Shown: one piece after another, positions 1 through 55,833 of the stretch
Layout: each line of letters begins with the position of its first letter
Position numbering within the stretch: position 1 is the first letter of the stretch
Origin: Chiloscyllium plagiosum
Lineage: Eukaryota
Assembly: GCF_004010195.1 (NCBI RefSeq)
Contig: NC_057713.1
Coordinates: 41,783,555 to 41,847,554, forward strand
Length of the DNA stretch: 64,000 nucleotides
Direction of reading: 5' to 3'
The notes under the pieces: generated by a model
The model's database searches: none
Told to the model about the DNA's origin: nothing
Seen by the model: the letters and a program-made list of their open reading frames with translations, nothing else
Translations under genes and position numbers: made by a program

Positions 1-945
1 GAGGCCCTGGTCATGGTGGATGGAGGTGTAGAGGGATTGGATATCCATGGTGAAGATGAGGCATTGGGGGCCGGGGAAACGGAAGTCTTGGAGGAGATGG
101 AGGGCGTGGGTGGTGTCTCGAACATATTTGGGGAGTTCCTGGACTAGGGGGGATAGGACAGTGTTGAGGTAGGTAAGGATGAGTTCAGTGGGGCAGGAGC
201 ATGCTGAGACAATGGGTCGGCCAGGGTGGTCAGGCTTGTGAATCTTGGGAAGGAGGTAGAACCGGGCAGTGCGGGGTTCCCGGACTATGAGGTTGGAAGC
301 TGTGGGTGGGAGATCTCCTGAGGTGATGAGGTTCTGTATGGTCTGGGAGATGATGGTATGGTGATGGGAGTGGGGTCATGGTCGAGGGGGTGATAGGAGG
401 AGGTGTCTTTGAGTTGGCGTCTGGCTTCAGCGGTGTAGATGTCAGTGCGTCAACCTGCCACTGCACCCCCTTTATCTGTTGGTTTGGTGGTGAGGTTGGG
501 TTTGGAGCAGAGGGAGTGGAGGGCTGTGCGTTGTGAGGATGAGAGGTTGGAGTGGGGGAAGGGGGTGGACAGGTTGAGGCAGTTAATGTCTCGGCGGCAG
601 TTGGAAATGAAGAGATCGAGGGTGGGTAATAGGCCAGCACGGGGAGTCCAGGTGAATGGAGTGTGCTGGAGACGGGCAAAGGGGTCCTCTGAAGGTGGAC
701 GGGAGTCCTGATTGTAAAAGTAAGCTCAGAGGAGGAGTGCGCGGAAGAATTGTTCGACGTCACGGCATGTATTAAATTCATTGATGTGTGGGCGGAGGGG
801 GATAAAGGTGAGGCCTTTGCTAAGGACTGATCATTCGACCTCAGGGGGATATGGTGAAAACTTGGCAGGGCTGGGAGCTAGGACCCGGTGTAGGCGTGGA
901 GCTGGGAGTGGGTGGAGTCAGTAACTGGAGTGGGTGTGGTGGTAG
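1..945 (-). mobile_element. Penelope-like element, RT N-terminal part (disrupted), runs off the left edge
   Basis: Minus strand reads ..KPTDKGGAV.., PRTARFYLLPKIHKPDHPGRPIVSACSCPTELI..YVRDTTHALHLLQDFRFPGPQCLIFTMDIQSLYTSIHHDQGL, typical PLE RT motifs. Confidence 0.85.
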
Positions 946-2449: not shown

Positions 2450-4285
2450 GCAAGTATTGGATGGATTGGCTTTCTTAAAGGTGGATAAATGATGGTGGCT
2501 GGATGAATAGTATCCAGGCTCTTAAAAGAAGCCGAGGAGGAAATACAACATAAAAAAAAGAACTGTGGCGGAAACAAAAACAGAAATACTTGGGAAAACT
2601 CTGCAAGTCTGATAGCATCTGTGGAAAGAAAGCAGAGTTAACATTGCAAATGGGTTCTGAAGAAGAATAACCAGACTCAAAACATTAATTCTGCTTTCTG
2701 TCCACAGATGTTGCCGGGAAATAGCTCATGCTTTGAGAATCATTTTCCAATTTGCACTAGATAGAGCTGAAATACCAGAGTAATGAAGGTTTGCAGACAT
2801 CGCACTACTAACCAAGGAAGGGTGCAAGTGATAAGCTGAATAATTATAGGTGATTAATGAGCAAAAAATTAGAATAAATACTGAGAGAAAGGATTATCAG
2901 TAACTTGAAAAGGCATATATTAATCAGGGACAATCAACATCATTTCTTTAAAGGAAGGTCATGTCTTATAAACTCAGTAGAATGTTTTTAGGGAGTTACA
3001 GGAGAATTTTTGAATGCAGAGCAATGGATGTTGTCTATATTGTTCTTAGAAAGGCATTTCACAAGGTCCCACATGACAGACTGGTCAGAAAAATTAAATC
3101 CCATAGGACACAGGGGAATGCGATGTGCTAATCCAAAATTAGTTTAGTGAAAGGAGACAAAGGGTAATGACTGACAGCTGACATTTGTGAATGAAAAGCA
3201 TTTTCCAGTAGTGCTCCACAGGGTTCAGTATTGGGTCTCTTGTTATTATATTTTCATTATTTAGACTTAAATGTCAGAGCCATGGTGGGGAAATTTACAG
3301 ACAACATATAACTTGGCTCGGTGATTGATAGTGAAGACGGTGTCTGATGACTGCAAGATTACATCAATAGCTTGGTTGAGTGGGTGGAAAAGTGGTAAAT
3401 GGATTTTAATCTGGAAAGTGTACGCTTATGCATTTGGTGAGAACAAACAAAACAAGGAATAATCATAATAATCAAGTACTGAGAAGGGCAGAGAAAGTTA
3501 CATTTCCACTGGTTCCTGAAAGTGGATGAACATTTAGGCAAAGTGATAAAGAAGGCATAAGAAATGCTCTGCTTCATTTGTCAGGTACTGAATACTAAAG
3601 TAGGAAGTAATGCTGGAACTATACAAGATATTGGTTAGAGTTGGAATTTTGTATACAGTTCAAGCCACCATATTTACAGGAAGGGATATAATTGCTCTGA
3701 GAGGGTGCAGTGAGATTTACAAAAATATTATCTGGGGCTTGAAAGCTGCAGCTGAGAGAAGCGATTAGATAGGCCAAGGTTGTTTTCCTGAAAACAGAGG
3801 AAGCTCAGAGGTGACATAATTGCCCGAAACATTAATTTTCCTGCTCCTCGAATGCTGCCTGACCTGCTGTGCTTTTCCAGCACTACTCTAATCTTGACTC
3901 GAATCTCCAGCATCTGCAATATGCACGTTCGCCTATTTGGATAGAGTGGACAGGCAAGATCTGCCACCTGCAGAGGTCAATTATTAGAGGTACACATTCA
4001 AGTGATTAGGGGAAGAACGAGAGGGGACTTTTGCAAAACCTTTTTCACTCGCAGAGTAGTGGGTCTCCAGAATTTGGTACCCAGTTTGGTCCTTGAGGTG
4101 GACACCCTCAATCTATATAAAAGGAATCTGGATCTGTAGCTAAAGTGCAACAGTTTCTAACGCATACAGACGAGGTGTTAGAAAGTATGATTGGAATGCT
4201 TGTTAATTTATTCAGCCGGTGCAAGTACTGGTACAGGCCGAACACCAACTTTTGCTGTAACTTATCTATTGTTCTATGTTTCCAT
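2450..4285 (+). mobile_element. Older decayed CR1 with short PLE-terminal-repeat inserts (2575-2715, 3820-3920)
   Basis: Degenerate CR1 RT motifs and a ttctatgtttccatga tail. Confidence 0.7.
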
Positions 4286-8089: not shown

Positions 8090-8390
8090 AAAGGTGTGGT
8101 GCTGGAAAAGCACAGCCGGTCAGGCAGCATCTGAGGAGCAGGAGAGTCGACGTTTCGAGCATGAGCTCTTAATCAGGAATGAGGGACGCCCAAGAGGACT
8201 GAGAGATAAATGGGATGGGGGTGGGGCTGGGGGATGGTAGTTAGGAATGCAAAAGGGAGATGGAGGTGGGGGGGGGGTGAAGGTGATAGGTCGGAGAGGA
8301 GGGTGGAGCGGATAGTTGAGAAAGGAGATGGACTGATAGGACAGTTCAAGAGGGCAGTGCCGGGTTAGAAGGTTGGATCTGGGATAAGAA
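8090..8390 (-). mobile_element. PLE terminal-repeat fragment with a degenerate hammerhead (8147-8180)
   Basis: Same family as 46378-46841. Minus strand reads CTGATTA-A-GAGC-TCAT-GCTC-GAAACGTC. Confidence 0.75.
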
Positions 8391-8894: not shown

Positions 8895-9078
8895 GTGTCG
8901 AGAGTGTGGTGCTGGTAAAGCACGACAGGTCAGGCAGCATCCAAGGAGCAGGAGAATCGACGTTTCGGGCAAAAGCTCTTCAATTCTCCTACTCCTCGGA
9001 TGCTGCCTGACCTGTTGTGTTTTTCCAGCACCACACTTTCGACTCTAATCTCCAGCATCTGAAGTCCTCAATTTCGCC
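8895..9078. repeat. Fold-back (inverted) pair of PLE terminal-repeat fragments
   Basis: ~8897-8958 is the reverse complement of ~8983-9042. Confidence 0.8.
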
Positions 9079-17016: not shown

Positions 17017-18159
17017 CTTAAAAGGAATAAAAATTCCATATTAAACAATTTTAATTGTAATATGTTCTTGAGTATAAATAGTTTGGATCATTACGATTAA
17101 GTTCACCCAAACTTTAAAAATGTCAGTTTCCCATCAGAGTTGCAGTCATAAATAACACCACATAAATATAGAACTCTTAGCTCAGTAAAATAATACTCCT
17201 TTAATGCAATAGCCAGAGTTTAAACATTGTCAACAAGCACAATATATAGTTAGCATGTTTTCACTAAAATATTAAATAGCTGTAACAAAGCAAGCAGTTT
17301 AAACTACTTGTATAAAATTATCCAATGTTCTCATCTGATGCTCAAAGTCATAATTCAGTCCATTGCCTAACCTGTTAAAAGTGTCGATGTACATACTGAC
17401 AATAATGCATTTTAGGATAAATATTTTTGGCATTTCTTTAAAACTTGAAACTAAGAGATTCAGTCACCACTTTCGCGCCATTGCAATTTGGGAGTGAGCA
17501 TATTTAGCAGCAAATTATCTTCTGAGATTAGATATTTTCTGTAAAACTTGAAACAAAGTTCTGGATTGAATGATTATTGTTAGTTTAGCACTATTGAGAT
17601 TCATTAGTCCAGGAATTTGCACTGTTAAGTAAATGAAGAAAAGAAAATCAAAGACATTTGGCAAAATCTTCCATTAGGAAGTGTAGTCCAGCAACAGTCC
17701 TAGAAGCAAGGGTCACTTTCATTTAGGGATTATTGGGTGTTTCTTTTACGCAATCATGGTTCCCAGGTTTAGGTTTTTGCACAAGTGCAACGGCAAATCT
17801 AATGGGGTGGTGTTGAGCTGGCAGGAAGATCTCACCCCATTAGTACATTCTAGCAGTGAGGGTGCTACACTTGAAAGGCACCCAGATGGCAATTACTCAC
17901 TGCAAACAAGGAAGATCAACTAGCCTGTGTTAATTTAAAGCAACATTATTTAACTTTTTTGTCCTATTCAACCTGTTCAGTGATTTTATCAAACAAAAAT
18001 TTGCCTTATTAAAATCATCATTTTCCAAATTCTCACAATATTTACTCTCTATTTAGCTCTATCTATCTGAGAAAGGATATTATTGGCAACAATCCATATG
18101 TTTGAGCTGGGCCGTTAGCAGTACCGTCCTCTCTGAAATAAGCCTTTCTCTCTTACAAT

Positions 18160-18730
18160 CAGAGAGCATGGATACAGACCCTTCGGTCCAACTAGTCCAT
18201 GCCAACTATGTTCTCAAACTAAACTCGTCCCATTTGCCTGCATTTGGCCCATATCACTCAAAATCTTTCCTATTAATGTATTTATTCAAATGCCTTTTTA
18301 ATGTTATAATTCTATCAGCATTCACCACTTTCTCTGGCAGTTCATTTCACACATGAATCACTGTCTATGTAAAAGTGTTGCCTCTTTTCAAATCTTTCTC
18401 CTCTCACCTTAAAAATATGCCCCTAGTTTTAAACTCATCTACTATAGGAATAGAGTCTATTCAATAGACCCTTGCTATTCATGTTACCTATGCCTCTCGT
18501 TTTATAAACCTCTATAAGGCCACTCGTCAACCTCCTATGTTTCAGTGAAAAATGGCTGGCCTATGCAGCCTATTTTTAGAACTCAAATCCTCCATACCGG
18601 GAAGTAACTGCTAAGTCTTTTCCGAACCATCTCCAACTTAGTAAGATGTTTCTGATAGGAGGGCAATCAAAACTGCACACTGTACTCCACAAGAGGCCAA
18701 AATAATGTCCTGTACAACCTCAACATGACA
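18160..18730 (-). mobile_element. CR1 3' fragment
   Basis: Reverse complement of the CR1 3' end seen at ~1700-2280. Confidence 0.8.
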
Positions 18731-19177
18731 ACTTGTGAAATTGCACACTTCTTAGGTTCAAATTTAATCACTGAATCTTAGAATTGAACCGTTGACGATC
18801 TTATTCCTATTATACAGTTCACCAGCCGGCTTCTCAAGCTGGTTCCCACATTATTAAATTTGATCTAGTTTTTCTTAGCAAAGACTAGTATGCAAGGGCA
18901 AGCATCTTTTCCTAGGGATGCCCTTTAAGTAGTATCCAGTGAACTGTTTTGGGACCTTTGTACATTCTGCCATACGTAAGTGGTCTTCCAAACAATTTTT
19001 TTAAAAAAAGTGTAATTATTTGCAGATGACCGTGTGGTTTATGAATTAGTGAAAAATGCAAAATGATCTTCTGGAAATGCAAATATGGGAGGGCAAATCG
19101 GAAACGGCATTCGATGGCTCTAAATTTGTAATCAAATTCTCCAGTAGATAGATGCACAATCAGACTTGATGGTTTAT

Positions 19178-19675
19178 AGAGTCATGGAGTCATAAAAATG
19201 TACAGCACGGAAACAGACCCTTCGGTCCAACTCGTCCATGCCGACTGGATATCCTAACCCAATGTAATACCATCTGCCAGCATCCGGCCCATATCCCTCC
19301 AAACCCTATTCATATACCTATCCAGATGCCTGTTAAATGCTGCAATTGTACTAGCCTCTACCACTTCTTCTGGCAGCCCATTGCACACATGCACCACCTA
19401 CTGCGTGAAAAAGTTGACCCTGAGGTCACTTTTATATCTTAACCCTCTCATCCTAAACCTATGCCCTCTAGTTCGGGACTCCCCCACCCCAGGGAAAAGA
19501 TCTTGTCTATTTATCCTATCCATGCCCTTCATGATTTTATAAACCTCTATAAGGTCACCCATCAGCCTCCAATACTCAAGGGAAAACAGCCCTAGCCTAC
19601 TCAACCCCTCCCTATAGCTCAAATCCTGGCAACATCCTTGTAAATCTTTTCTAAGCCCATTCAAGTTTCACAACA
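19178..19675 (-). mobile_element. CR1 3' fragment
   Basis: GDLIEVYKIMKGMDR..RGHRFR..NFFTQ plus the microsatellite tail. Confidence 0.85.
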
Positions 19676-19929
19676 TGAAAACCATCTTCAATGAGGATTC
19701 CACGTTTATCAGGTAGTATCTGAAACAAACGGATTCATGTATTTCTGAGGAGGAACTTTTGGTACTGGAACAAAAATATTATTGAGTTGTTGTTATGAAA
19801 CATTTTGTTGTCTAAACCTGGTATAACCAAATGGTATGTGGGATTCCCGTTTGATGAGAAATATCAATAAGGTTGTGGTGATCCAAAGACGTGCTGCACA
19901 AATCAGAACTGGAAACACACTAACATCAC

Positions 19930-20125
19930 AGAGTCATAGAGTCATACAGCATGGAAACAGACCCTTTGGTCCAACTTGTCCATGCTGACCAAGTTTCCCA
20001 AACTGAACTATTTTGGGTTTGTCTGCGTTTAGCTCATATCCTTCTAAACATTTCCTATCCATGTACTTGTCCAAATGTCTTTTAAATGTTGCATCTGCAC
20101 TGGCCTCTACCACTTCTTCTGGCAT
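19930..20125 (-). mobile_element. CR1 3' tail fragment
   Basis: PEEVVEA..TFKRHLDKYM plus the (TCATAGAG) tail. Confidence 0.8.
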
Positions 20126-20260
20126 ACGTGATCAGAGCTTTGAAATAGAAGTCACTACAACAATGGAGGTAGTAAAGTATCATGATCAAAGTTTGTGAGA
20201 AGATTTGTAGTTTGGGTGATCGTTGTTGTGGCTCTGTTCACTGAGCTGGGAATTTGTGTT

Positions 20261-20300
20261 GCAGACGTTTCGTCCCCTGTCTAGGTGACATCCTCAGTGC
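20261..20300 (-). ncRNA. Minimal type-I hammerhead ribozyme motif, apparently intact
   Basis: Exact reverse complement of 21831-21870. Confidence 0.85.
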
Positions 20301-21830
20301 TTGGGAGCCTCCTGTGAAGCGCTTCTGTGTTGTTTCCTCCGGCATTTATAGTGGTTTGTCTCTGCCGCTTCCGGTTGTCAGTTCCAGCTGTCCACTGCAG
20401 TGGCCGGTATATTGGGTCCAGGTCCATGTGTTTGTTGATAGAATCTGTGGATGAGTGCCATGCCTCCAGGAATTCCCTGGCTGTTCTCTGTTTGGCTCAT
20501 CTGTTTGCATCATCTCCACACACATGCAGATGGCAAGCAACATGAATTCGACTGGGACAACACTACTATTATAGGACAAGCCAAACAGAGAACAGCCAGG
20601 GAATTCCTAGAGGCATGGCACCCGCCCACAGATCCAATCAATAAGCACATCGACCTGGACCCAAAATACCGATCACTGCAGCGGACAGCTGGAACTGACA
20701 ACCGAAAGCAGCAGATTCAAACCACAACAAATGCTGGAGGAAAGATCACAGAAGCNNNNNNNNNNNNNNNNNNNNNNNNNNNNNNNNNNNNNNNNNNNNN
20801 NNNNNNNNNNNNNNNNNNNNNNNNNNNNNNNNNNNNNNNNNNNNNNNNNNNNNNNNNNNNNNNNNNNNNNNNNNNNNNNNNNNNNNNNNNNNNNNNNNNN
20901 NNNNNNNNNNNNNNNNNNNNNNNNNNNNNNNNNNNNNNNNNNNNNNNNNNNNNNNNNNNNNNNNNNNNNNNNNNNNNNNNNNNNNNNNNNNNNNNNNNNN
21001 NNNNNNNNNNNNNNNNNNNNNNNNNNNNNNNNNNNNNNNNNNNNNNNNNNNNNNNNNNNNNNNNNNNNNNNNNNNNNNNNNNNNNNNNNNNNNNNNNNNN
21101 NNNNNNNNNNNNNNNNNNNNNNNNNNNNNNNNNNNNNNNNNNNNNNNNNNNNNNNNNNNNNNNNNNNNNNNNNNNNNNNNNNNNNNNNNNNNNNNNNNNN
21201 NNNNNNNNNNNNNNNNNNNNNNNNNNNNNNNNNNNNNNNNNNNNNNNNNNNNNNNNNNNNNNNNNNNNNNNNNNNNNNNNNNNNNNNNNNNNNNNNNNNN
21301 NNNNNNNNNNNNNNNNNNNNNNNNNNNNNNNNNNNNNNNNNNNNNNNNNNNNNNNNNNNNNNNNNNNNNNNNNNNNNNNNNNNNNNNNNNNNNNNNNNNN
21401 NNNNNNNNNNNNNNNNNNNNNNNNNNNNNNNNNNNNNNNNNNNNNNNNNNNNNNNNNNNNNNNNNNNNNNNNNNNNNNNNNNNNTACATAGGACAAACAG
21501 GAAGACAGCTAACGATCCGTATCCATGAACACCAACTAGCCACGAAACGCCACGACCAGCTATCCTTAGTAGCCAATCACGCAGATGACAGGCAACATGA
21601 GTTCGACTGGGACAACACTACTATTATAGGACAAGTCAAACAGAGAACAGCCAGGGAATTCCTAGAGGCATGGCACTCATCCACAGATTCTATCAACAAA
21701 CACATCGACCTGGACCCAATGTACCGGCCACTGCAGTGGACAGCTGGAACTGACAACCAGAAGCGGCAGAGGCAAACCACTATAAATGCCGGAGGAAACA
21801 ACACAGAAGCGCTTCACAGGAGGCTCCCAA

Positions 21831-21870
21831 GCACTGAGGATGTCACCTAGACAGGGGACGAAACGTCTGC
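21831..21870 (+). ncRNA. Minimal type-I hammerhead ribozyme motif, apparently intact
   Basis: GCA-CTGAGGA-T-GTC(ACCTAGACAGGG)GAC-GAA-ACGT-C-TGC. Stem I GCA/TGC, full core, stem II GTC/GAC plus CCT/AGG, palindromic ACGU stem III, GUC triplet. Predicted cut after 21867. Confidence 0.85.
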
Positions 21871-24578
21871 AACACAAATTCCCAGCTCGGTGAACAGAAC
21901 CACAACAAGTATCATGATCAATAAAATATGGAATAGACTGGTGGAAATTGAGAAACACAAGTACTTAGTACCTCCAGCAATGACGAAACATGAAGTATCC
22001 ATTCATACAATCTACAAAGACCATTTGTTTCCAAGACCATGTATCAACAATCTTTCTTCCCAAGAGCAATTCGGCAGTTTAACGATAACATATTACTGAA
22101 GAAACTCAGCAGGTCTGACAGTATCTGTGGAGAGAGGCAGAATTAATGGACGGGTTCAAAATATTAACTCTATTTCTCTCTCCATAGTTGAGATCAGCTG
22201 AGTTTGTCTCACATTTTATGCTTTTATTTCAGATTTCCAACATCTGCAGCGTTTTGTTTTCACAGCAGTGGAACAAGCTGACAAAGGAATTTGTCACAGT
22301 CCCATCACTTCAAATCTTCAAGACCCATCGTTCGATTGTTTCTATTGGAAGGCTTTCATCATCAACATTACCACCATTTCAGCAGAATGCATCTGTTTTA
22401 GCTAGTATAATCTATATTAATGTTAGTAGAACATGGATAGTAGTCTGCCATAACACAACTAAAGCAGAAGCAGAAAGCAGACAACCTTGCTCATTGCTCA
22501 CTCTTTTCTAGAGTTGACCTATATTAGTTCCAGGTCAGGCAATGTCTTGATGTTCAAATTGCCATCTTCTTTTCCAGATCCTATCATGGCCTCACAACTT
22601 CCTAACTCTGTATTCTCATTCAGTCACTCACCCCCAGTAAAATCTAACTTGTCCAATTACAACCTTAAAAATATCCCCATTTTTAACTGTTCTAACATTG
22701 CTGACCGAGCAGTTAGCTGTGTCTGGACCAGCAACTGGAACTCCTTCTCCCAACCATTCTACGTCTCTACCTTTCATTTATTCTTTAAAATATTGTTTAA
22801 CTTTTAACTTATATCAGGTTTTGGTCATCTGACTAATATTTCCATCTGTAACTTGGGGCCATATATTTTTAATTTGTTAATGTGATGTGGTCATCACTGG
22901 TTAAGCCAGCATTTATTGCCCATTTCTCATTGACCTTGAGAAGATGGTGATATTGTGTTTTGTAACATTCTTGTGAAGCACTTTCGGAATTTATATTTTG
23001 CAAAAACAGAGCAGTGGACAGAGAAGTTATGACAAGTGATACTTGAGCAATGATAAGCTAGATAAGAATGAATCGTATGCAACAGTCTAGAATGTTGATA
23101 AGAGTCATTTCAATACTATGGCAAGGGTGGAAACCTGATTGGACAAATTCAAACTTAGAGTTCTGAGAAAGCTGGGCATGGATTTGGGAAGAATCAGTAA
23201 GTTCATGGACACTGGACAGGAAAGGAATATGTAGGTGGGGAGGTTGTCATAGTTTGCAAGTGGTGGAATCAAGGGTTTTTTGAGGAAATAAGTGATGCTA
23301 TCAGATACCAAGGAGAGAAAGAGTCACCATCTAAAAAAGAGAATAAAATTGGCTAGCATGAGGAGCAATGGTCAGCAATTAAGTCAGAATAATGTCAACA
23401 GAGTTCAGCGTTGGTATGCGGGAAGGTTGTAGAAAAAAATTGAGAAAGTCACAAGTTCAGGGCCAGGAAAATAGAAACTTTTACAATAAGTTTGAACCAG
23501 TGAACGAGCTTGGACACAGCAGAGACAGTTGATTAAAGGTTATCCAGCTTATTGACAAAACTGCTCATGAGCTTTTTGTACATATTGTTAGATGTGATGA
23601 TCAAGGAGACAAGTGTGAATGGTTTACGAAGACTGTAAGTATAAGAGAAAAGATACAGGGGTTATTTTAGCATTCCAGGGTGATCCTATAATTATGACCA
23701 GTTTCAGAAAAACGAGCAGGACCTTATTGCATTTTATGAGCTCCAATCATATTTAGTGTTGGATGAAAAACTATTTGTATCTGTATCCATTCAACTCTTT
23801 ATTGCTTAGATTTAAAGAAATAGACATTAGTAATATAGCAGGATGAGAGAGTGGGGAATGATTTTATTGGGTCTATTGTGTATCAAGGCTAAGGTGGGTG
23901 TGTGGTTAAACAAATTAATAGCTACAGAAATACTGTAATGAATGGAAGGCCAAAGGCAGACAACTGGAACTTTGAAAGTGTAGTTCTAAGTGAATTCAGC
24001 AAGTCTTTTTCAAGTGTCAGACTCATTATAACGGCATTGGGGCAGGGTGGGAGTGAAAGGCATTTAGTGACATATGGAAAAAAAAGAGTCGACTTTACTT
24101 GTTACTGATAACACAGTGTAGCAGGTCCGTGTGAGATGAGAACATCAAAGAGGGTGGCCACGAATATGGGCTGAAGAATTTGCATGGAATTTTGAGATGA
24201 CCCAGAGAAAAGAGAACAGATTTTTTCATGAACAATAGTGTCAAAGATGATAAAGGTAGATGGGAATATGAAGTCACAATCAGATCATCCATAATCTAAT
24301 TGAATGATATTGAGGGACCAAATGACTTACTCCTGTTCCTAATTCTTATGTTCATGAACATAGTGAGGTTGAGAGGATGTTGAATTCGCTGAGAATGAGA
24401 AGTGATTCAATGCAGAGGACAAAGGGAGAGAATTTTTATTGTACTTTGGAATGGTGGTAGAAAACGATGATTTTGTCTAAGAGTTAAGAAGAAAATGTCA
24501 GCAGTATAGGGGCTTAGCTGGGGTGATATTTGATGATAAGCACCATGAGGACATTGTGATAGACTTGACAGGGTAAGT

Positions 24579-24837
24579 AAGATTAGATGAGATTACATTA
24601 CAGTGTGGAAACAGGCCCTTCGGCCCAACAAGTCACACCGACCCGCCGAAGCGCAACCCACCCATATCCCTACATTTACCCCTTACCTAACACTACGGGC
24701 GAGCACCCGGAGGAAACCCACGCAGACACGGGGAGAACGTGCAAACTCCACACAGTCAGTCGCCTGAGGCGGGAATTGAACCCGGATCTCTGGCGCTGTG
24801 AGGCAGCAGTGCTAACCACTGTGCCACCGTGCCACCC
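24579..24837 (-). mobile_element. HE1-type (V-SINE) tRNA-derived SINE
   Basis: Minus head GGGTGGCACGGTGGCACAGTGGTTAGCAC..GGGTTCAATTCCC (A/B boxes); V-domain-like GAGTTTGCACGTTCTCCCCGTGTCTGCGTGGGTTTCCTCC; CR1-like tail. Confidence 0.88.
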
Positions 24838-25179
24838 ACGGTGGGGGATTAATCAGATGGGGTGGCTTAATTGAGGAAAAGGTACCACACTGCAATCAGA
24901 CTACTATCAATACTATGATGTGACAATGTGTGAGGCAACAAAAAAATCAACAGTTGTGCAGAACATGGTTCATGGATGATATCGGAGAAAAGATTTATTC
25001 TATATGACAAAGAGCTGCTGGAGCTTGATTCCACAATAATTAGGAGTCTCAACTTCATCAGTACAATGCTCTAGAACTTTTCTTCTTTTAAAGAAAGAAA
25101 AACAAACCATGTTTTAATTCCTAATATTAGCACAAAGGAAAAATATTTCCATCTCACAGTACCATAATGCAACACATAC

Positions 25180-25276
25180 CCAGGATGTATCCTGGTAGAC
25201 ACTGACATTTTCCATGATTGTCTACACTGGCACCTGGGGGACATCTAATACAGCTCCATCCATCGTGGGTGACTGC
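25180..25276 (-). CDS. TMEM67: TMEM67 coding exon 3
   Basis: ttttcaag|AVTHDGWSCIRCPPGASVDNHGKCQCLPGYIL-G|gtatgt; matches human GVTEDGWNCISCP..GKCHCPIGHIL. 97 bp, phase 0 to 1. Confidence 0.95.
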
Positions 25277-26334
25277 CTTGAAAATAATTACAATAATTAC
25301 TAAAATATATTTTAAACAATTATACAGCCATGTCAAAAAAAATGAACTGTCAAAATGCATTTATGGAATTTATACATGTATATTGCTTTTGCCCTATATT
25401 TTAGAGATTCCTCCTTAAATGTCTTGCCTTTTCCATCTTTCCATTCTTTTAAGGTGGTTTTTATGGGAAACAAAAATGGGCTCTGTAGGCTTTTTTGGAC
25501 TCATAACGCCTCTTCAGTTTCTTCTAAAGGGGTTTGTTCAGACACAATCATGGTGATTTTACCCCTGTGCTGTCATTTTGAACCTCCAATGTAAACCTAT
25601 ATCATGTATTAAAATGTCACACAGTCAGGCATGCATTAATCAGCATGGAGTGCAACCAGCACTGCCTAACGTTGTTATGAATTACCTACAGATTAGTTGC
25701 TGAGACCTTATTCTAAGCTGCAATAGATTCCAATCTTCAGACATTCCAATCTGCTATCTAGAAATGGCTAAACATGCAGGGCACAGTAAGGACTGTGGGA
25801 CAGGCAACATTGTCTAGTACAGAACAACCTCGATTATCTGAACAAGACGGGTGGGGAGCATTTTGTTCAGATAACTGATTGTTCGGATAACTGATCTCAT
25901 CATAAACAAAGGAAGCCATACTGAACATAATTACACATTTACAGAGTCTTTATTTCATTCAATCGATAAAATGTGTACAAACACTGGATATTGCTTAAAA
26001 ATTCTTGATATTTTACTAATAAAATCACTTTTTGGCTAGAGTTTGACTGAAGTCTGTGAAATTTTTCGCTGACATTTTCCTCGGTTTTATCCCAGTCCTC
26101 AAAAGCAGCCGGCATTGGTATTGACAATTGTGCTGTAATACTAGCCATCTCTTTGGCCAAACTGTTCTAGTACAGCTTCTACACAGATGTCTGCCTGACA
26201 ATAGCGAAGATTGCCAAGACATGTACAATCCCAAAAAGTAAGACAAATTGACCAATCATCCAATCAGCCTGCTCTTGATCATCAGCAAACTGTTGAAAGG
26301 TGTTCAAATCAACTAGGAGAAAGTGAGGACAGTA

Positions 26335-26520
26335 GATGCTGTAGATCAGGTTCGAGAGTGGGGTGTTGGAAGAGCACAGCAATTCAGGCAGCATCTAAGG
26401 AACAGGAGAATTGACCTTTCAGGCAAGAGCCCTTCATCAGGCTCTTGCCCAAAACGTCAAATATCCCGCTCCTTAGATGCTGCATGACCCGCTGTGCTTT
26501 TCCAGCACTCCACTCTTGAC
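26335..26520. repeat. Fold-back PLE terminal-repeat pair with a degenerate hammerhead (minus, 26411-26441)
   Basis: Inverted arms ~26353-26430 and ~26441-26518. Minus strand reads CTGATGA-A-GGGC-TCTT-GCCT-GAAAGGTC. Confidence 0.75.
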
Positions 26521-43474: not shown

Positions 43475-43602
43475 CAAATGATGAAGGACTCTTGCCCAAA
43501 ACTTTGATTCTCTTGCTCCTCGGATGCTGCCTGACCTACTGTGATTTTCTAGCACCCACTCTCAACTCTGATCTCCAGCATCTGCAGCCCTCACTTTCTC
43601 CT
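43475..43602 (+). repeat. PLE terminal-repeat fragment with a decayed hammerhead
   Basis: ATGATGAAGGACTCTTGCCCAAAAC followed by the same downstream sequence as 46745-46838. Confidence 0.7.
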
Positions 43603-45591: not shown

Positions 45592-45737
45592 ACCTGGACA
45601 GTCCCCGACCTCAAATTCACCTGGACAGTCCCCGACCTCAAATTCACCTGGACAGACCCCGACCTCAAATTCACCTGGATAGTCCCCGACCTCAAATTCA
45701 CCTGGACAGTCCCCGACCTCAAATTCACCTGGACAGT
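45592..45737 (+). repeat. 27-bp tandem repeat, ~5.4 copies
   Basis: Unit ACCTGGACAGTCCCCGACCTCAAATTC. Confidence 0.95.
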
Positions 45738-46841
45738 CTCAGATTCCTCCCTCCCCTTCCTCGACCTTTCTATTTCTATCTCAGACGACCGAATCAACAC
45801 GGACATCTACTACAAACCAACCGACTCCCACAGCTACCTGGACTACACCTCCTCTCATCCTGCCCCCTGTAAAAACGCCATCCCATGCTCCCAATTCCTT
45901 CGACTCCGCCGCATCTGCTCCCAGGAGGACCAGTTCAAAATACGTACAACACAGATGGCCCCCTTCTTCAAGGACCGCAATTTCCCCCCCGACGTGGTCG
46001 ACGATGCCCTCCACCACATCTCTTCCACTTCCCGNNNNNNNNNNNNNNNNNNNNNNNNNNNNNNNNNNNNNNNNNNNNNNNNNNNNNNNNNNNNNNNNNN
46101 NNNNNNNNNNNNNNNNNNNNNNNNNNNNNNNNNNNNNNNNNNNNNNNNNNNNNNNNNNNNNNNNNNNNNNNNNNNNNNNNNNNNNNNNNNNNNNNNNNNN
46201 NNNNNNNNNNNNNNNNNNNNNNNNNNNNNNNNNNNNNNNNNNNNNNNNNNNNNNNNNNNNNNNNNNNNNNNNNNNNNNNNNNNNNNNNNNNNNNNNNNNN
46301 NNNNNNNNNNNNNNNNNNNNNNNNNNNNNNNNNNNNNNNNNNNNNNNNNNNNNNNNNNNNNNNNNNNNNNNNNNNNNATGGGCTAATGCCCGAAACGTCG
46401 ATTCTCCTGTTGCCTAGATGCTGCCTGACCTGCTGCGCTTTTCCAGCAACACATTTCCATCTCTGATCTCCAGCATCTGCAGACCTCACTTTCTCCTCAA
46501 AGATTTCAACCTACTGCGAATCCTCTTACAAGGATGCCTTCCTTGAAGGAGCTCTCTTTCTCCCTCTACAAAGGTTTCAGTGAGTCCCTCTCTCACTGCA
46601 CCCCCCAGGTCATCTCCTCTGCACAGAAGCTCTTCAGACCTATTTCCGACGCCCCTCCCCCAAGTCCCTCCTCCCTATCTTTTATCTTAGCCTGCTGGAC
46701 CAACTTTCCTCATTCCTGAAGAAGGGCTAATGCCCGAAACGTCGATTCTCCTGTTCCCTAGATGCTGCCTGACCTGCTGCGCTTTTCCAGCAACACATTT
46801 CCATCTCTGATCTCCAGCATCTGCAGACCTCACTTTCTTCC
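45594..46841 (+). mobile_element. 5'-truncated Penelope-like element with tandem terminal repeats; contains gap 46035-46377
   Basis: RT C-terminal PDLKFTWTVSDSSLPFLDL..DIYYKPTDSHSYLDYTSSHP..SQFLRLRRICS. Direct repeats ~46380-46495 and ~46724-46838. TSD CATGGTAGAC at 45584-45593 and 46842-46851. Confidence 0.88.
46712..46747 (+). ncRNA. Minimal hammerhead ribozyme motif (second family)
   Basis: ATTC-CTGAAGA-A-GGGC-TAAT-GCCC-GAA-ACGT-C-GATT. Complete core; short stem I with one mismatch. Confidence 0.75.
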
Positions 46842-48430: not shown

Positions 48431-49939
48431 GAGAGCAGTTAAAGTGTACAGTGCTCCTGGGCTTCATTAATAAGGCATAGAGTATAAGAGCTAGGAGGTG
48501 ATGTTGAACTTGTACAACATTTGTCCAATCCCAGCTGAAGAACTGTGTCACACGAAAGGAAAGCAGAGTTCAGAGATGATTTACAAGCATAGTTCCAGGA
48601 ATGAGAAACTTCAGTGATGAGGACAGATTGAAGGAACTGGGACATTCTTGTTGGAAAGAAGGCAGCTGAGAGAAAATCTGATAGAGGTTTTCAGGATCAT
48701 GAGTGGGCTGTATAGATGGGGAGAAGCTTTTCCCATTTGTAAAACAAGAAACAATGAGAAGGCATAGATTTAAAGCGATATGCAAATGATGATGCGAGAA
48801 AAACTTTATCAGACAGTTTGGATATAGAATGAACTGCCTGGAAATGTGTTGTATTCATGTTCAATTGAGGTATTAAAGATGATTTTGGATGATTATTTGG
48901 TTAAAAATGGTATTCTAGGATATGGGAATAGAGCAGGGGACTAGTACTAGATAATAGAATCAGTGTTGGCATGATGAGCCAAATGAACTCCTTTTGCACC
49001 AAAACAATTCTGTGATTTTGCTCCTATGTCTCAATGCAGTAATTCCAGTGCAGAAGAAAAAATGTGGCACCTCAAGCTGGTTATGAATAATCTAATGAAA
49101 TACTAACTATTTAGCTTCTTGAGCCTAATCTAGCATTCATTCATATGCACATCTTTATTGTGAAGTCACTAAACAAACTAAGTACATATATGGTAGCAGT
49201 GTGTCAGCATTACATAATGATAGTGCTTCTCAAACCTTTCCCACATGATCTCAATTAAGCGAGAATAGAAAATAGTCACAAATCAATGGGGTGTGGGGTG
49301 TTATGAGGGGAAAGGGCATTTGAGATTTTTGAATCAGAGCTGGCTACCTCAAAATTTCAGCTGCCCTCCTCTCCCCACCCCTACTTTGGCAAACCCTCCC
49401 ATATGGTAGTTGAATCTGAAATGGCAAAGATCAGTGTATCTTGGGCCACTTGATCTGGGGGTGCAAGGTCAGGTTACAGCAACAAGAGCTGTTAAGAAGT
49501 CGTCTACAAAAGCTTTGTTAAGTATGTGACTGAGTGCTGAGCTGTCAGCCTGAGATCTGACACCATCATTCTCAAATTTAAAATGATCATCAATTGTCGC
49601 CAGTGGAAGAGTTCCAAAATTCGACCACCCTTTGCCAGTTTCCTAATTTCACCTCCGAAAGATCTAGGTGACAAAGAGCAGGCAACTGGCGCCAGTAATG
49701 ATGCTTAATTAATGAGCTGGATGGGCTGAACGGCCTTCCTCTGCGATTGTGTGGTTGTGTTTTGTCTTCAAAACGTGGAGTAGGCTTTCCAACCAGCAGA
49801 AATTGATTATTGTCCGCCAACCCAACTTCTGCTATGTACCAAACATTTCTAACGGCGAGTTAGGTTTGAACTGGTCTCTTGTCACTGGGCACCAATAATA
49901 CCCCCCTACCCCCAAAACCATCTGACAAGTTTTACCCAC

Positions 49940-50129
49940 CATCGCTACCTGACTGCTGGTCGGCGCCACACGGCCTGCACACCATTCGGGAAATGTCAAA
50001 ATACTCTCGCTTGGTGCATTGTTGCACGGTTTGGAAAGGCAGAGAGAGGATGACGGTCTGGGTAGAGGGCAGATGTAGCAGGAGCAGCGGTGCCCAGAAC
50101 GACACTACCTCCCCAACTGTCATGGCCAT
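49940..50129 (-). CDS. TMEM67: TMEM67 (meckelin) coding exon 1: signal peptide and start of Cys-rich domain
   Basis: Reads MAMTVGEVVSFWAPLLLLHLPSTQTVILSLPFQTVQQCTKREYFDISRMVCRPCGADQQSGSD-G, matching the meckelin N-terminus (human ..FSFPFQQPEKC..YFDISALSCVPCGANQ). Phase-1 donor G|GTGGGT fits exon 2. An alternative ATG lies at 50123. Confidence 0.9.
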
Positions 50130-51838: not shown

Positions 51839-53610
51839 GTTAGTGTTATACAAATGGTAGGTGACTGAAAATTGTCTAACTGGGATAGACTACTAATCTT
51901 TTATTGTCATGCAACACTGACTTTTTTTTAGTTTTTTTTATTACAAATGTTGTGATTCAGTTATGAATAGTAACTTCTAAACCAAAGGGAAAGTGAAAAT
52001 AAAGTTTTCTTAAATGTATCAATTTCCAAGCAGCTGCATGTGTAGGAATTTGTCACTGCATACCAAGCTGCAGAGCACTTGCATTTCCTGTGCATTACAA
52101 TTTCTGTGTTTTAATGCATCCGATTATGAAGCAATAATTAGAAAAATCTGTGTTCACTAAACTTCTGATGTTAAATATACTTTACAATGCAGGATTAATA
52201 TTTAATTTTGTCCTGCATAGTATATTTAAGAGCTTTTTTTTCCTGGTTTACTATTATAATTAATTAACAAGTTGCCAAAAAAATTTAAATCTGACCTTTT
52301 GGTTCTTGCAATTGAGTTATTCAGACTGTACACTGCTGTTTAGTCCAATGCATTGGAGTAATCTGAACTTCTGTCCAGAGTGCATAATGTTTTTTTTTGC
52401 AACTGTTGCTGTAATTTTGCTTTATTACAGAGTTATGTGCATTATTCCTATTGCCCATAGTGCTAACTAGTATTTCAATCAGTATCCGTTTTCTGAACAG
52501 ATAGTGAGAGTCTGTGTATTGTCCATTATGGATTAGTTAAAAATGTACATATTTTTCAATCCAAAACTATCACTTTCTATCTCCTTTATGGAACAAAGTC
52601 ATAAGCCTAAGGACTGTTACTTCAAAAGAATCGAGATGTTTTGAATGCAAATACTATATTCTTAGCTGAACCTGCATTTGAGATGCTACAGAATCAAGTC
52701 TACTGTACCTGATAGCTTTGCGAAAACATTAATATTGTGATCTACCTGAAAGAACCATCTTTGAGATGAAATAATTTATTTCTCAACTGGACTGCTGAAT
52801 TATGTGCAGTAGTGGATTTTTCAGTTTGCCTGGAGTTAGTTACAGTTTGAAAATGCCCCAGTGTGGATTTTACGGTTTGAATTTGCTTCATATCTGCAAT
52901 CGTTTGCATCAGAGTTCAGAGGAATACTTGAAAGGAAAAGAAAATTTGGGTTACTAGCTTGATTGTTTTTGAGAATACAATAAATAGGATTTGTCCATTC
53001 CTGGTGTGAAGTTATTTGACAGAGATGGATTACATATGGGAGAAAAGATGTGATGGACTCTTTACATAAAAGATCATGGTTGCAGTTTTGGGCTAATTTC
53101 AGATGAATTTTAATCCTAGGTCCTTTTTACATTCCTTGTTTGGAGAAGGAATAATGCAGTACTAGTAAGTTGCACTTACTTGGACAGCAGTTTTGAACTT
53201 TGATCTATCATCTTATTTCAAGATGAATTCCACTGAGGTGCTGTGGCTGAGTTAAAACGCCTCATCGATTTTTCACATTAAAGACAATTTCAGTCATTAT
53301 CAAATCTTGTGGAGAGCTGTTGTGGATTGGAGGATATCTTCAGAACTTTTCGAAACTACTTTAGTGTATTTGGTGGTTTGAGTTGGGAGTTTGAGATTTG
53401 ATGGTTATACTTTTTGAATTGAAGGTCAATGTTTAAACCAATTTGTGCTGAGTAAGAAGAATCTGTTTTATTCTTACAAATAAGTCAGAAATGCTAATTT
53501 TATTATATTTGGAAGTTAATGCAGTATCCAGAACCTTTTTGATATAATTTGACGTCATCCTGTGTGCCTTTCTTGCCTGCAGGTAACATTTTCTATTGGT
53601 AGAGTTCAGC

Positions 53611-55833
53611 ATGGCTGTGGTCATCCGCTTGCAGGGGCTCCCAGTTTCTGCAGGAACCTTGGATATTCGTCACTTCTTCTCTAGATTAACCATTCCTGAT
53701 GGAGGGGTGCATATAATTGGTGGTGAACTGGGAGAGGCATTCATTGTATTTGCTACGGATGAAGATGCACGGCTTGCTTTGATGAGATCGGGTGAATTTC
53801 TTAAAGGGAGTAGAACAAAACTAACATTAAGTAGCAGAAACGAAATGCAGAGTACAATTGAGATGAGTCGTAAGAGATATGCACGTTCCAGTGGAGAAAC
53901 ATCCAGTTACGGAAGGTCGGGATTCAGCAGTTCTGGCACAGGTGGCTTAGGTAGTATGTCTTCTACGCTAGCTGAAAACTTAGTTGCAGCAATGCAACAT
54001 GAAATTAATAGGGATGCGTTTCATCCTGGTGAAATTGGAAGTTCTGATGTGAACAGCTATGGCTCTCGTATGGATCCTATGATGAGTGGGAATATGGCAA
54101 CAATGGCTTTATCTTCTCCGCAGAACATTCCAGTTGCTCCTAGTTCCTCAATGTCTGCGTTATTTGGAATGACACCTGGAGCAATGAGTGATAGTTTGGA
54201 TAAATTTAATGGCTCTGGGTCAGTGGATCCTTTTGCTGTTTCTGCGTATAATCAAAGGAGAGAACAAGGAGCTTTTCATTCTGATGATGTTTATTTGCAT
54301 CTGCAAGGCATGCCATATTCTGCTGGAGAGCTGCAAGTAAGAGAATTCTTCCACGGTTTACAAGTGGAAGCAGTTCGTCTACAAAAGGATTACCGGGGTA
54401 TGAACAATGGAGAGTGTTTTGTACGGTTTGCCAGTTCTTGGGATGCAGCTGAGGGACTGAAGCGTCACAAAAAATACATGGGGCAAAGATTTGTAGAGGT
54501 GTATCGAGCTACAGAACTAGAATGGATTTCTGGGGGATCTGATTTGTTTATAGATGATAGACATTTGGATTTAAACCGACACAATCGAGGTCGTTCCCCT
54601 CATCGTGAAGATAAACATTTCCATTCTCAAACTCGATCAAGGTCACCTCGAAGACACAGGTCACGATCTTATTCCCCTCAAGATCAAGATTATTGGATGC
54701 AGTTAAAAAATATACCGTATAGTATCTTAAAAAAAGATATACGAAATTTCTTTGATGAACTAAATATCACAGATGACCAGATTTACCTTGTAGAAGATCC
54801 TCATGGTAAAAATACTAATGAATGCTTTGTGAAGTTTAGAAATGATTCTGAGATTCGTAAAGCTTTAAGATACCATAAGACATACATTGCAAACCGTGCA
54901 GTTTATCTGTATCCTGTTGCTAAAAAAGCTGTGATAGAGTTGATGGACGCTGTTAAGAAACAAAGATCAAGAGAAAAATCTGCCTATAGAAATGAAGAAA
55001 AAAGGTACCAGTCAAGAGAAGGAGCACATTCCCCAAGATTGTATATTTATGCTCGTAATCTACCATTTGATATCTCCAAATCTGAGATCCATAAATTCTT
55101 TGAGGGATTTGGTGTGGCTGAACATGGGATCCGAATACTTGTTGATAGTAATGGCATTGGACTAGGGGAGGCTCTAGTCAAGTTCAAGTCTGAAGATGAA
55201 GTACTAAGGGCTGAGCGCTTATATGGTAAAAAGCTTGGAGGAAGAGAAGTTGTACTAAAGGTGGTTACTTCAGAAGAGGTGTTTGAACTTGGTAACGCTT
55301 CTATGCATGAAAGAGCCAAAGGTCAAAAGGAAAGTGACTACTTTGGTTCATATGGTGGTGGTGGTGGTGGTGATCACTCATTATCTCATGATATGCATGA
55401 ATTATCTAAGCCTTTCTTTGAACCTTCTGGTAATTTGGATTCTGTATCCTCCATGCAAGGACCAATGTATGGCAGAGAAGAAGGAACTTATGGAGGGTTT
55501 AACACTGGAAACAGCAATTTTGATGACTTTAGTGGAGGGGGATTAGGATCGCGATTTGATTCAGGCTACCGAGGTCGTACTGGAGTTGCCAGTGGCATGG
55601 CTGTTGTGAAGGCTTTCAACCTGCCTTTCAAAATTTCAGTTGATGAAATACTGGACTTCTTCTATGGCTATCGTGTTATTCAAGAGTCTGTCATTGTACG
55701 GTACAATAAGAGGGGGTTTCCTGCAGGCGACGCAATAATTACATTTGAAACAGTTGATGAAGCAATGGCTGCTGTTCGTGAACTGAATGATAAACCAATT
55801 GGAAAAAGAAATGTCAAACTAAGTTTGCTCTAA
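53611..55833 (+). CDS. RBM12B: RNA-binding protein 12B (multi-RRM), single coding exon, 740 aa
   Basis: Starts MAVVIRLQGLP..DIRHFFS.LTIPDGGVHIIGGELGEAFIVFATDEDAR (RBM12-family N-terminus). Five RRM-like segments, an RSRSP tract, and C-terminal NLPFK..EILDFFYGY..AMAAVRELNDKPIGKRNVKL. Position next to TMEM67 matches RBM12B synteny. True ATG is at 53611; acceptor AG is at 53581-53582. Confidence 0.93.
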   Translation: MAVVIRLQGLPVSAGTLDIRHFFSRLTIPDGGVHIIGGELGEAFIVFATDEDARLALMRSGEFLKGSRTKLTLSSRNEMQSTIEMSRKRYARSSGETSSYGRSGFSSSGTGGLGSMSSTLAENLVAAMQHEINRDAFHPGEIGSSDVNSYGSRMDPMMSGNMATMALSSPQNIPVAPSSSMSALFGMTPGAMSDSLDKFNGSGSVDPFAVSAYNQRREQGAFHSDDVYLHLQGMPYSAGELQVREFFHGLQVEAVRLQKDYRGMNNGECFVRFASSWDAAEGLKRHKKYMGQRFVEVYRATELEWISGGSDLFIDDRHLDLNRHNRGRSPHREDKHFHSQTRSRSPRRHRSRSYSPQDQDYWMQLKNIPYSILKKDIRNFFDELNITDDQIYLVEDPHGKNTNECFVKFRNDSEIRKALRYHKTYIANRAVYLYPVAKKAVIELMDAVKKQRSREKSAYRNEEKRYQSREGAHSPRLYIYARNLPFDISKSEIHKFFEGFGVAEHGIRILVDSNGIGLGEALVKFKSEDEVLRAERLYGKKLGGREVVLKVVTSEEVFELGNASMHERAKGQKESDYFGSYGGGGGGDHSLSHDMHELSKPFFEPSGNLDSVSSMQGPMYGREEGTYGGFNTGNSNFDDFSGGGLGSRFDSGYRGRTGVASGMAVVKAFNLPFKISVDEILDFFYGYRVIQESVIVRYNKRGFPAGDAIITFETVDEAMAAVRELNDKPIGKRNVKLSLL

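Follow-up and report, generated by a model that had tools for sequence, protein, structure and literature searches.

The window analyzed here (64,000 nucleotides of contig NC_057713.1 of the shark Chiloscyllium plagiosum) contains two hammerhead motifs on opposite strands of one short element, which raises the question of why they face opposite ways and whether either is likely to act as a ribozyme at this locus. With good confidence, we interpret the locus as a truncated insertion of an endonuclease-bearing (EN+) Penelope-like element (PLE) in intron 3 of TMEM67, in which both hammerheads represent a single end-repeat motif; their opposite orientation follows from the inverted end copy that such insertions usually carry. 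The element is likely non-autonomous, and motifs in related proteins place it, as a likely assignment, in the Penelope/Poseidon clade. The features of the locus are the following.

17018..25180, minus strand: host context, intron 3 of the TMEM67/meckelin gene, bounds approximate
20175..20189, no strand: left target-site duplication (TSD), 15 bp, identical to 21907-21921
20190..20497, minus strand: inverted 5'-truncated element end (inverted pLTR arm), 308 nt with tail, of which 273 nt are 97% identical to the right arm, with a 71-codon EN C-terminal frame
20190..20224, minus strand: 35-nt PLE "tail", on the left arm only, fitting the 30-40-bp tail of PMC8557442 and PMC11167929
20261..20300, minus strand: minimal type-I hammerhead motif, copy 1, the sole copy that is sense on the host pre-mRNA
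20498..20515, no strand: head-to-head junction, 18 nt, short inverted snippets of adjoining sequence
20516..20755, plus strand: direct partial repeat (upstream pLTR-like copy, diverged subfamily) with an open EN C-terminal frame, 88% to 21578-21810
20756..21484, no strand: assembly gap, 729 N, 42% of the element
21485..21850, plus strand: C-terminal 121 codons of a PLE ORF, GIY-YIG from YIG onward, 90% to an RT-bearing Chiloscyllium punctatum protein
21831..21870, plus strand: minimal type-I hammerhead motif, copy 2, with cleavage predicted to follow C21867
21840..21842, plus strand: AUG made up of A9-U9b-G10.1, at which the next tandem ORF likely starts, placed as in PAc (PMC11167929)
21907..21921, no strand: right TSD, 15 bp, identical to 20175-20189

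The host gene was recognized from the full C. punctatum meckelin protein, residues 91-126 of which align to 25288-25181 and residues 127-160 to 17017-16916, with GT and AG at the intron boundaries; a Pfam search of the host exons gave no identification, and a single host exon had no match in the PDB. TMEM67 is a ciliopathy gene.

The two 40-nt motifs are identical, as the original prediction had stated, and lie inside a 116-nt exact run within the 273-nt inverted arms (97%, 8 mismatches). The core (CUGAGGA...GAAA...UC) is present, with the loopless ACGU helix III at 21863-21866 and C17 at 21867, and the motif shows all core hallmarks of minimal hammerheads (min-HHRs): C3-A9, G12-A15.1, U16.1-H17, a loopless palindromic helix III, nucleotide 9b, and G10.1-C11.1. 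The hammerheads had been called intact, which holds for the core, the ACGU stem III, and stems I and II, but left out of account an extra U (21841) between A9 and G10.1, the mere 3 bp of stem I, and the A.G mismatch that divides stem II into two blocks of 3 bp. Helices I (3 bp) and II (3+3 bp) are formable, but another fold is favored. That the 40-mers are identical was not taken to indicate selection, since P = 0.30 for 40 unchanged nt given the divergence of the arms; for a run of at least 116 identical nucleotides, P = 0.10.

Two element halves and the 729-N gap between them are bounded by the perfect 15-bp TSD, which had been correctly reported, and the element accordingly spans 20190-21906. 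The proposal of a TSD-bounded PLE insertion carrying the known minimal type-I pLTR hammerheads is thereby supported, although the gap had been overlooked. Sequence comparison within the window reveals pLTRs from partial tandem copies, both direct and inverted, and the 35-nt tail and 15-bp TSD agree with the one-end tail of 30-40 bp and the TSD of variable length that mark EN+ PLEs. The left arm ends 102 nt and the right arm 67 nt after the AUG. The direct repeat enters the gap approximately 20 nt short of where its own hammerhead would begin, and the gap likely contains a third hammerhead along with the GIY half of the endonuclease. With the middle concealed by the gap, the element length, the RT content, and the continuity of the two halves depend on the TSD, and an undersized gap would leave room for a nearly complete copy. 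As to the presence of the insertion in other sharks, one X1 contig reaches from unique flank across the first 21 nt of the element, and one X5 contig carries 16 unaligned letters ahead of the right TSD, both below the 31-nt bridging rule.

The hammerhead core holds both the likely ORF start codon and the stop of the preceding ORF: the TAG of the 121-codon fragment lies at 21848-21850, within stem/loop II. From the AUG, the right-arm frame is halted by a TGA at 21891-21893; its left-arm counterpart aligns to residues 2-41 of an 832-aa PLE ORF (P0018; E 0.001); a TGA is present in the N-terminal frame of both arms, and most family copies are without it. What the original prediction called an open GIY-YIG frame is a C-terminal fragment of 121 codons that begins at YIG. 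No RT and no GIY/CxxC half occur in the visible element sequence, and both would fall in the gap region; Pfam searches with the two EN fragments of the window gave nothing significant and no GIY-YIG match. Histidines are present in the visible fragment, and the cysteines of the EN CCHH motif would fall in the gap. All 5 relatives checked have the CxxC inside GIY-YIG, and the stretch of 95 residues preceding EN in these 5 proteins contains no CX2-5CxxC zinc finger; the Pfam GIY-YIG match is weak in 3 relatives. In 2 relatives (P0001 and P0183; 88-90% identical), the RT lies upstream of EN in the same ORF.

Comparison with described systems indicates that most of these traits have precedents. 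Min-HHRs of metazoan PLE pLTRs have already been reported in close opposite-strand pairs (Cervera & De la Pena 2014, PMC4209133), and the window motif shares with them the type-I topology, the missing loop 3, the palindromic 15.2-16.2 pairs, the extra 9/10.1 nucleotide, G10.1-C11.1, a short helix I, a longer helix II, and the paired opposite-strand arrangement, while its stem I has 3 bp compared to 4-5 bp in the Schistosoma families (PMC4209133). The words "Shark," "Callorhinchus," and "Chiloscyllium" are absent from 2 supplementary files of that paper. PAc, the Poseidon element of Anolis carolinensis (Frangieh et al. 2024, PMC11167929), likewise starts its ORF at the beginning of stem II, and its cut site lies 26 nt beyond that start, the distance in the window element being 28 nt from the A; the 2 elements further have in common ends at 2 AC-rich sites one tail-length apart and an AT-rich target. 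Unlike PAc, the window element has its preceding ORF stop inside the ribozyme, overlapping the next AUG with no untranslated spacer; its end sites lie at +67 and +102 rather than at approximately +111-118, as for one PAc site, and the copy is truncated and diverged. In the literature searched, which mostly excluded subscription papers, we found no description of such a stop/start overlap in Penelope hammerheads.

The EN+ PLE unit is known to consist of a partial tandem pLTR, an adjoining inverted 5'-truncated copy, a tail, and a TSD (PMC8557442; Pen2a_Av, PMC3846280), and the inverted-pLTR layout seen here also occurs in PMC8969392. The window element shares all 4 parts, the palindrome-like head-to-head junction, and a pLTR with the first ORF codons, so that the opposite orientation of the hammerheads needs no new explanation: inverted pLTR, direct repeat, one-end 35-nt tail, and TSD correspond to the PLE layout already in print. 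With 15 bp, the TSD departs from the 8-10 bp of the Adineta cases consulted, and the inverted arm resembles the distal arm, not the adjacent direct repeat. Non-LTR retrozymes (PMC7229834; 10.64898/2026.07.22.740005) also have type-I hammerheads, a proposed PLE ancestry, and a chondrichthyan occurrence, but they are non-coding head-to-tail tandems with a ribozyme per unit, whereas the window locus consists of inverted coding fragments. The visible copies lack the at least 2 head-to-tail non-coding hammerhead units that define a retrozyme, with room for a hidden tandem in the gap.

Three other readings of the locus were weighed. That the motif is chance or purely protein-coding sequence with no ribozyme is hardly tenable. 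It would be in line with the result of the Rfam covariance-model search, which yielded no hammerhead family among 7 matches up to E 10, with a folding stability showing no excess (z -0.15), and with coding constraint on this stretch in 2 frames. Against it, a generic minimal-hammerhead descriptor matched the window 3 times (both motifs and one site at 46716) but never in 150 first-order Markov simulations of the window; the motif occupies the pLTR position, with the AUG placed as in the tested PAc ribozyme (PMC11167929); and in 10 related shark proteins the C-termini vary between E and D at the codons spanning the hammerhead core, while 2 read-through protein forms retain the stem II spacing. 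A model (R1) built from 15 unrelated motifs gave the motif 37.3 bits, a partly circular score since the seed pattern was derived from the motif, and, less circularly, also matched a different motif at 46710-46749 (E 0.0003). Among 106 distinct metagenome pattern matches, stem I averaged 2.01 bp compared to 0.68 +/- 0.10 in permutations and the extra stem II 2.04 compared to 0.68 +/- 0.09, both features lying outside the search pattern. The metagenome scan covered 119 loci (approximately 180 estimated); blastn matched none of them to the element, and tblastn matched 3 to P0001; one unrelated locus has the same layout, with 2 tandem and 1 inverted hammerhead beside a weak endonuclease match. Viral contigs gave 19 pattern matches, 0 of them confirmed. 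Covariation on an alignment of 15 of the 106 matches was dropped as evidence because those rows had been chosen for pairing. Somewhat less improbable, though still unlikely, is a composite locus, in which the diverged middle would be a separate insertion or a misassembled repeat and the true event would comprise the 2 inverted arms only: the middle fragment, which adjoins the gap, shares 88% identity with the arms, and PLE structures are said to break assemblies (PMC8557442), but the inverted snippets that make up the 18-nt junction come from the start of the middle fragment, which points to a real join, and a direct partial repeat beside an inverted arm is the typical layout (PMC3846280).

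We consider it very unlikely that the ribozymes are active at this locus, cutting the TMEM67 pre-mRNA (left copy) or an antisense or element transcript (right copy), or, in a variant, that the right copy dimerizes with a third copy in the gap, with effects on host RNA or release of a retrozyme-like unit of approximately 1 kb. Both cores are intact; a same-strand pair approximately 1,055 nt apart is plausible because the direct repeat halts just before its hammerhead; and non-LTR retrozymes have been proposed as PLE derivatives (10.64898/2026.07.22.740005). However, the hammerhead fold is not the minimum-energy one (-6.0 versus -8.7 kcal/mol), stem I and II pair probabilities in context (21800-21906) are 0.002-0.007, and the double hammerhead is outcompeted by the best dimer (-12.7 versus -20.9 kcal/mol), in energy models that leave out protein help and tertiary contacts. 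Lying on opposite strands, the 2 hammerheads are each other's antisense rather than dimer partners in cis, and transcription from either side reaches the antisense arm first; an arm-to-arm duplex of approximately -565 kcal/mol pairs the whole hammerhead with the opposite arm, so both are predicted to be mostly silenced by mutual pairing. Published min-HHRs had no activity as monomers and little as dimers (PMC4209133), and the PAc ribozyme depended on the element's protein, with no RNA-seq ends mapping to its cut site (PMC11167929). RNA read ends placed here likewise show no pile-up at the cut site, in a library poorly suited to show one. Ribozyme activity at the locus is doubtful, and the original proposal of potential activity on both strands is weakened accordingly.

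The truncated EN+ PLE insertion likely arose when the GIY-YIG domain nicked both strands of the AT-rich target 15 nt apart, as the TSD suggests. Reverse transcription of uncut element RNA would then have begun internally, at two AC-rich sites that lie 67 and 102 nt from the AUG, positions at which the ends are observed and which PMC11167929 suggests as start sites. Both sites are 3' of the cut site at +28; since both arms extend beyond the cut, the template was uncut or religated. The 2 truncated products would have been joined head to head via the 18-nt templated junction seen in the window. In this junction, 16 of the 18 nt are covered by inverted matches of at least 5 nt, a level reached by 6 of 4903 random window 18-mers under a coverage measure picked after the junction had been inspected. 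Of 25 variable sites, 19 set the direct repeat apart from both arms, so that the inverted arm agrees with the far arm rather than with the repeat next to it. A tentative extension is that the inverted arm represents a second priming event (double-ended TPRT by a dimeric enzyme), in which both target nicks would prime at the 2 internal start sites and the cDNAs be joined end to end; in that case, the affinity of the inverted arm to the far arm, together with a tail that the far arm does not have, would exclude fold-back on the neighbor. As part of the same tentative proposal, the cut would act as an off-switch unless the RNA is circularized: in this shark family, approximately 40 nt would encode an ORF stop, the next start, and the ribozyme, and cleavage would both strip the downstream unit of its start codon and part the ORF from the RT start sites. 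We found no paper connecting Penelope-like elements with twin priming in the literature searched, mostly without subscription papers. Cleavage in the parent element is likely no more than weak and would involve a dimer or the protein that the element encodes; at this locus, the ribozyme is likely a passenger, as the one sense copy in host pre-mRNA follows its 273-nt antisense partner and would enter a long duplex.

The insertion had been described as young, which is overstated: 8 of 273 sites distinguish the arms, most family reads depart from the right arm at 9-11 of its 422 positions (in 40 of 375 difference rows), and the N-terminal frame carries a TGA. The divergence between the arms was not used to date the insertion, because 2 different templates may have given rise to them. 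The element family is abundant, judging from the 51,588-85,438 contigs per DNA-type run placed on a 2.3-kb stretch that includes other flanking repeats. Family RNA is mostly of one orientation and deepest at the hammerhead bin (121 versus 10 at 21825-21901); 8 of 1,580 placed RNA reads are at least 99% alike, so this RNA says little on the present locus. A search of sequencing runs gave no RNA record with the sequence, a result that carries no weight in either direction.

The class-level view is unchanged, as pLTR hammerheads, inverted pLTRs, and opposite-strand pairs have all been published; the addition is a compact family, exemplified here in a shark, whose ribozyme overlaps with both a stop and a start codon. 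Given confirmation by long reads at many loci, the subfamily markers of the chimera could separate self-priming (PMC3846280) from two-ended priming. Fold-back of the arms is predicted to put a 273-bp double-stranded stem, a possible ADAR substrate, in the TMEM67 intron.

The Penelope-like element (PLE; 20190-21906) is flanked by a target-site duplication (TSD), and both identical 40-nt hammerhead motifs lie within a 116-nt exact run, as the original prediction had it for the duplication and the motif identity. Its description of a PLE insertion with inverted motifs holds, but it left unmentioned a 729-N gap and a third, direct repeat:

20175-20189 and 21907-21921, perfect 15-bp TSD
20225-20497, minus strand, left arm
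20261-20300, minus strand, hammerhead
20523-20755, third (middle) repeat, direct, 88% identical to 21578-21810
20756-21484, assembly gap, 729 N
21634-21906, plus strand, right arm, differing from the left at 8 of 273 sites
21831-21870, plus strand, hammerhead

The left arm exceeds the right by 35 nt, and the 18-nt junction between arm and middle repeat is built of inverted snippets of neighbouring sequence (by a post hoc measure on which 6 of 4,903 random 18-mers score equally high). These features match the layout described in PMC8557442, where a PLE insertion is a partial tandem that frequently has an inverted, 5'-truncated copy beside it and, on one end, a tail of 30-40 bp, and in PMC3846280, where the same layout is flanked by TSDs and has palindromes where the inverted copy joins.

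Each motif opens with a 3-bp stem I, followed by CUGAGGA, one additional U, stem II (two 3-bp segments separated by an A.G mismatch and ending in a tetraloop), GAAA, CG, UC and stem I', exactly the features of the minimal type-I hammerhead (min-HHR) as defined in PMC4209133, which also records close min-HHR pairs on opposite strands. A generic hammerhead descriptor found 3 sites in the window versus 0 in 150 Markov simulations; an Rfam search of the window returned 7 matches up to E 10, none of them a hammerhead. The oppositely oriented hammerheads were correctly spotted, and the element is a real but ordinary PLE insertion whose minimal hammerheads are of known type.

Ribozyme and reading frames overlap. 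The AUG at 21840 constitutes A9-U9b-G10.1 of the hammerhead, and its frame on the left arm (one stop taken as X) aligns to residues 2-41 of P0018, an 832-aa PLE ORF (17/40 identical, E 0.001). This placement resembles that in PAc, the Poseidon element of Anolis carolinensis, whose ORF starts at stem II (PMC11167929). The stop codon of the visible ORF, at 21848-21850, thus overlaps the start of the next. Eight of ten related shark proteins terminate one residue past the T/P-E/D-D/E-V/D core peptide; the other two read through, with stem II spacing unchanged. In the AUG frame, the 18th codon of either arm is TGA, and the two also share a T at 21737/20394, whereas the majority of family reads show C. 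As the changed positions are CpG sites, these common changes are suggestive of a shared source of the arms rather than proof of one.

At either terminus of the insertion an outward-facing 3' end of the element is found, one 67 and the other 102 nt past the AUG. Since both lie beyond the predicted hammerhead cut site at +28, the copied RNA was uncut or religated. By analogy with PAc, the ends probably mark the two internal start sites of the reverse transcriptase (RT); the PAc protein cleaves either strand of the target and extends it, ribozyme cleavage being dispensable (PMC11167929). The inverted arm could instead have been made by fold-back on the adjacent repeat, which predicts agreement between arm and middle repeat. 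Of the 177 positions common to the three repeats, 152 are identical; at 19 others the arms have the same base and the middle repeat a different one (other patterns: 3, 2 and 1). The arms thus side together, opposite to that prediction, and, provided that the middle fragment is correctly assembled, this sequence comparison makes a second priming event more likely than fold-back.

The insertion had also been proposed to be young, with potentially active ribozymes on both strands. Youth is not supported, the arms differing at 8 of 273 sites. Folding models speak against activity: the hammerhead fold is predicted at -6.0 kcal/mol versus an MFE of -8.7, its stem pairs have predicted probabilities of 0.002-0.007 within 21800-21906, the double hammerhead reaches -12.7 versus -20.9 for the best dimer, and the motif has no excess folding stability over shuffles. 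The two visible copies are mutually complementary rather than dimer partners, the antisense arm comes first in a transcript of either strand, and the predicted arm-to-arm fold pairs the whole motif. Min-HHR monomers are described as inactive and dimers as weak (PMC4209133). A same-strand partner may be hidden in the gap.

Past the gap, a 121-codon fragment matches 15 longer proteins (83 candidates), the closest being an RT-domain protein of Chiloscyllium punctatum (90%), which as query retrieved full-length relatives such as P0018 (49%). In each of the five relatives checked, the GIY-YIG endonuclease contains CxxC and the linker lacks a zinc finger; by the criteria of PMC8557442, these motifs point to Penelope/Poseidon, a placement based on motifs in relatives. 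The endonuclease tail of this PLE also forms the end of five annotated isoforms of shark host genes, P0005, P0007, P0010, P0013 and P0014 (among them MAP3K7, NT5DC1, CUEDC2 and WBP2-like), which suggests exonisation of, or read-through into, intronic copies.

The family is very abundant, with 51,588-85,438 contigs per DNA-type public run aligned to a 2.3-kb stretch that also includes flanking repeats. Its RNA in public runs is mostly of one orientation, shows no read-end pile-up, and is at least 99% alike to the locus in only 8 of 1,580 reads. Among 135-140 family RNA reads, about 9 have a 1-nt insertion on the 3' side of stem II, at 21857, and 9 have a 1-nt deletion 18 nt further, at 21875; together these possibly mark a subfamily with a compensated frameshift.

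In metagenomes, 106 distinct sites matched a core pattern that omits stem I and extended stem II, and pairing in these two stems was about threefold that of permutations. Stem I has at least 3 bp in 46 sites and none in 35, and position 17 is other than G in 95. The layout of two tandem hammerheads plus one inverted recurs at one unrelated locus (L002:91-836), where three sequence-variant minimal hammerheads surround a weak PLE endonuclease match.

Other PLE remnants in the window belong to a third family and to a second, distant one, which by its motif may be Neptune-like:

13-545, minus strand, third family, RT fragment, 30-36% identical to P0183/P0018 (related proteins)
45592-46840, plus strand, second family: RT-thumb fragment (25% identical to P0018), 343-N gap, pair of end repeats with 99% identity, one of them truncated by the gap at 46378
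45592-45740, 24-nt unit in five or six tandem copies at the fragment's 5' junction
46710-46749, plus strand, complete minimal hammerhead in the other end repeat
3821-3918, 8095-8184, 8905-9075, 26318-26507 and 43479-43599, decayed short copies of the second family's end repeat, 77-87% identity

The 24-nt tandem is consistent with RT slippage. Two decayed copies are head-to-head fold-backs, joined at ~8980 and ~26440, within or next to the hammerhead.

Six C. punctatum meckelin (TMEM67) exons align on the minus strand, with identities of 91-100%. The element sits between the exon encoding residues 91-126 and the one encoding 127-160, so that the host is probably a bamboo shark and the insertion site TMEM67 intron 3. 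TMEM67 exon 1 (49938-50129, minus strand) and an open frame of 748 codons (53587-55833, plus strand) are arranged head to head; the latter bears four RRM stretches and is, judging by synteny, presumably RBM12B-like.
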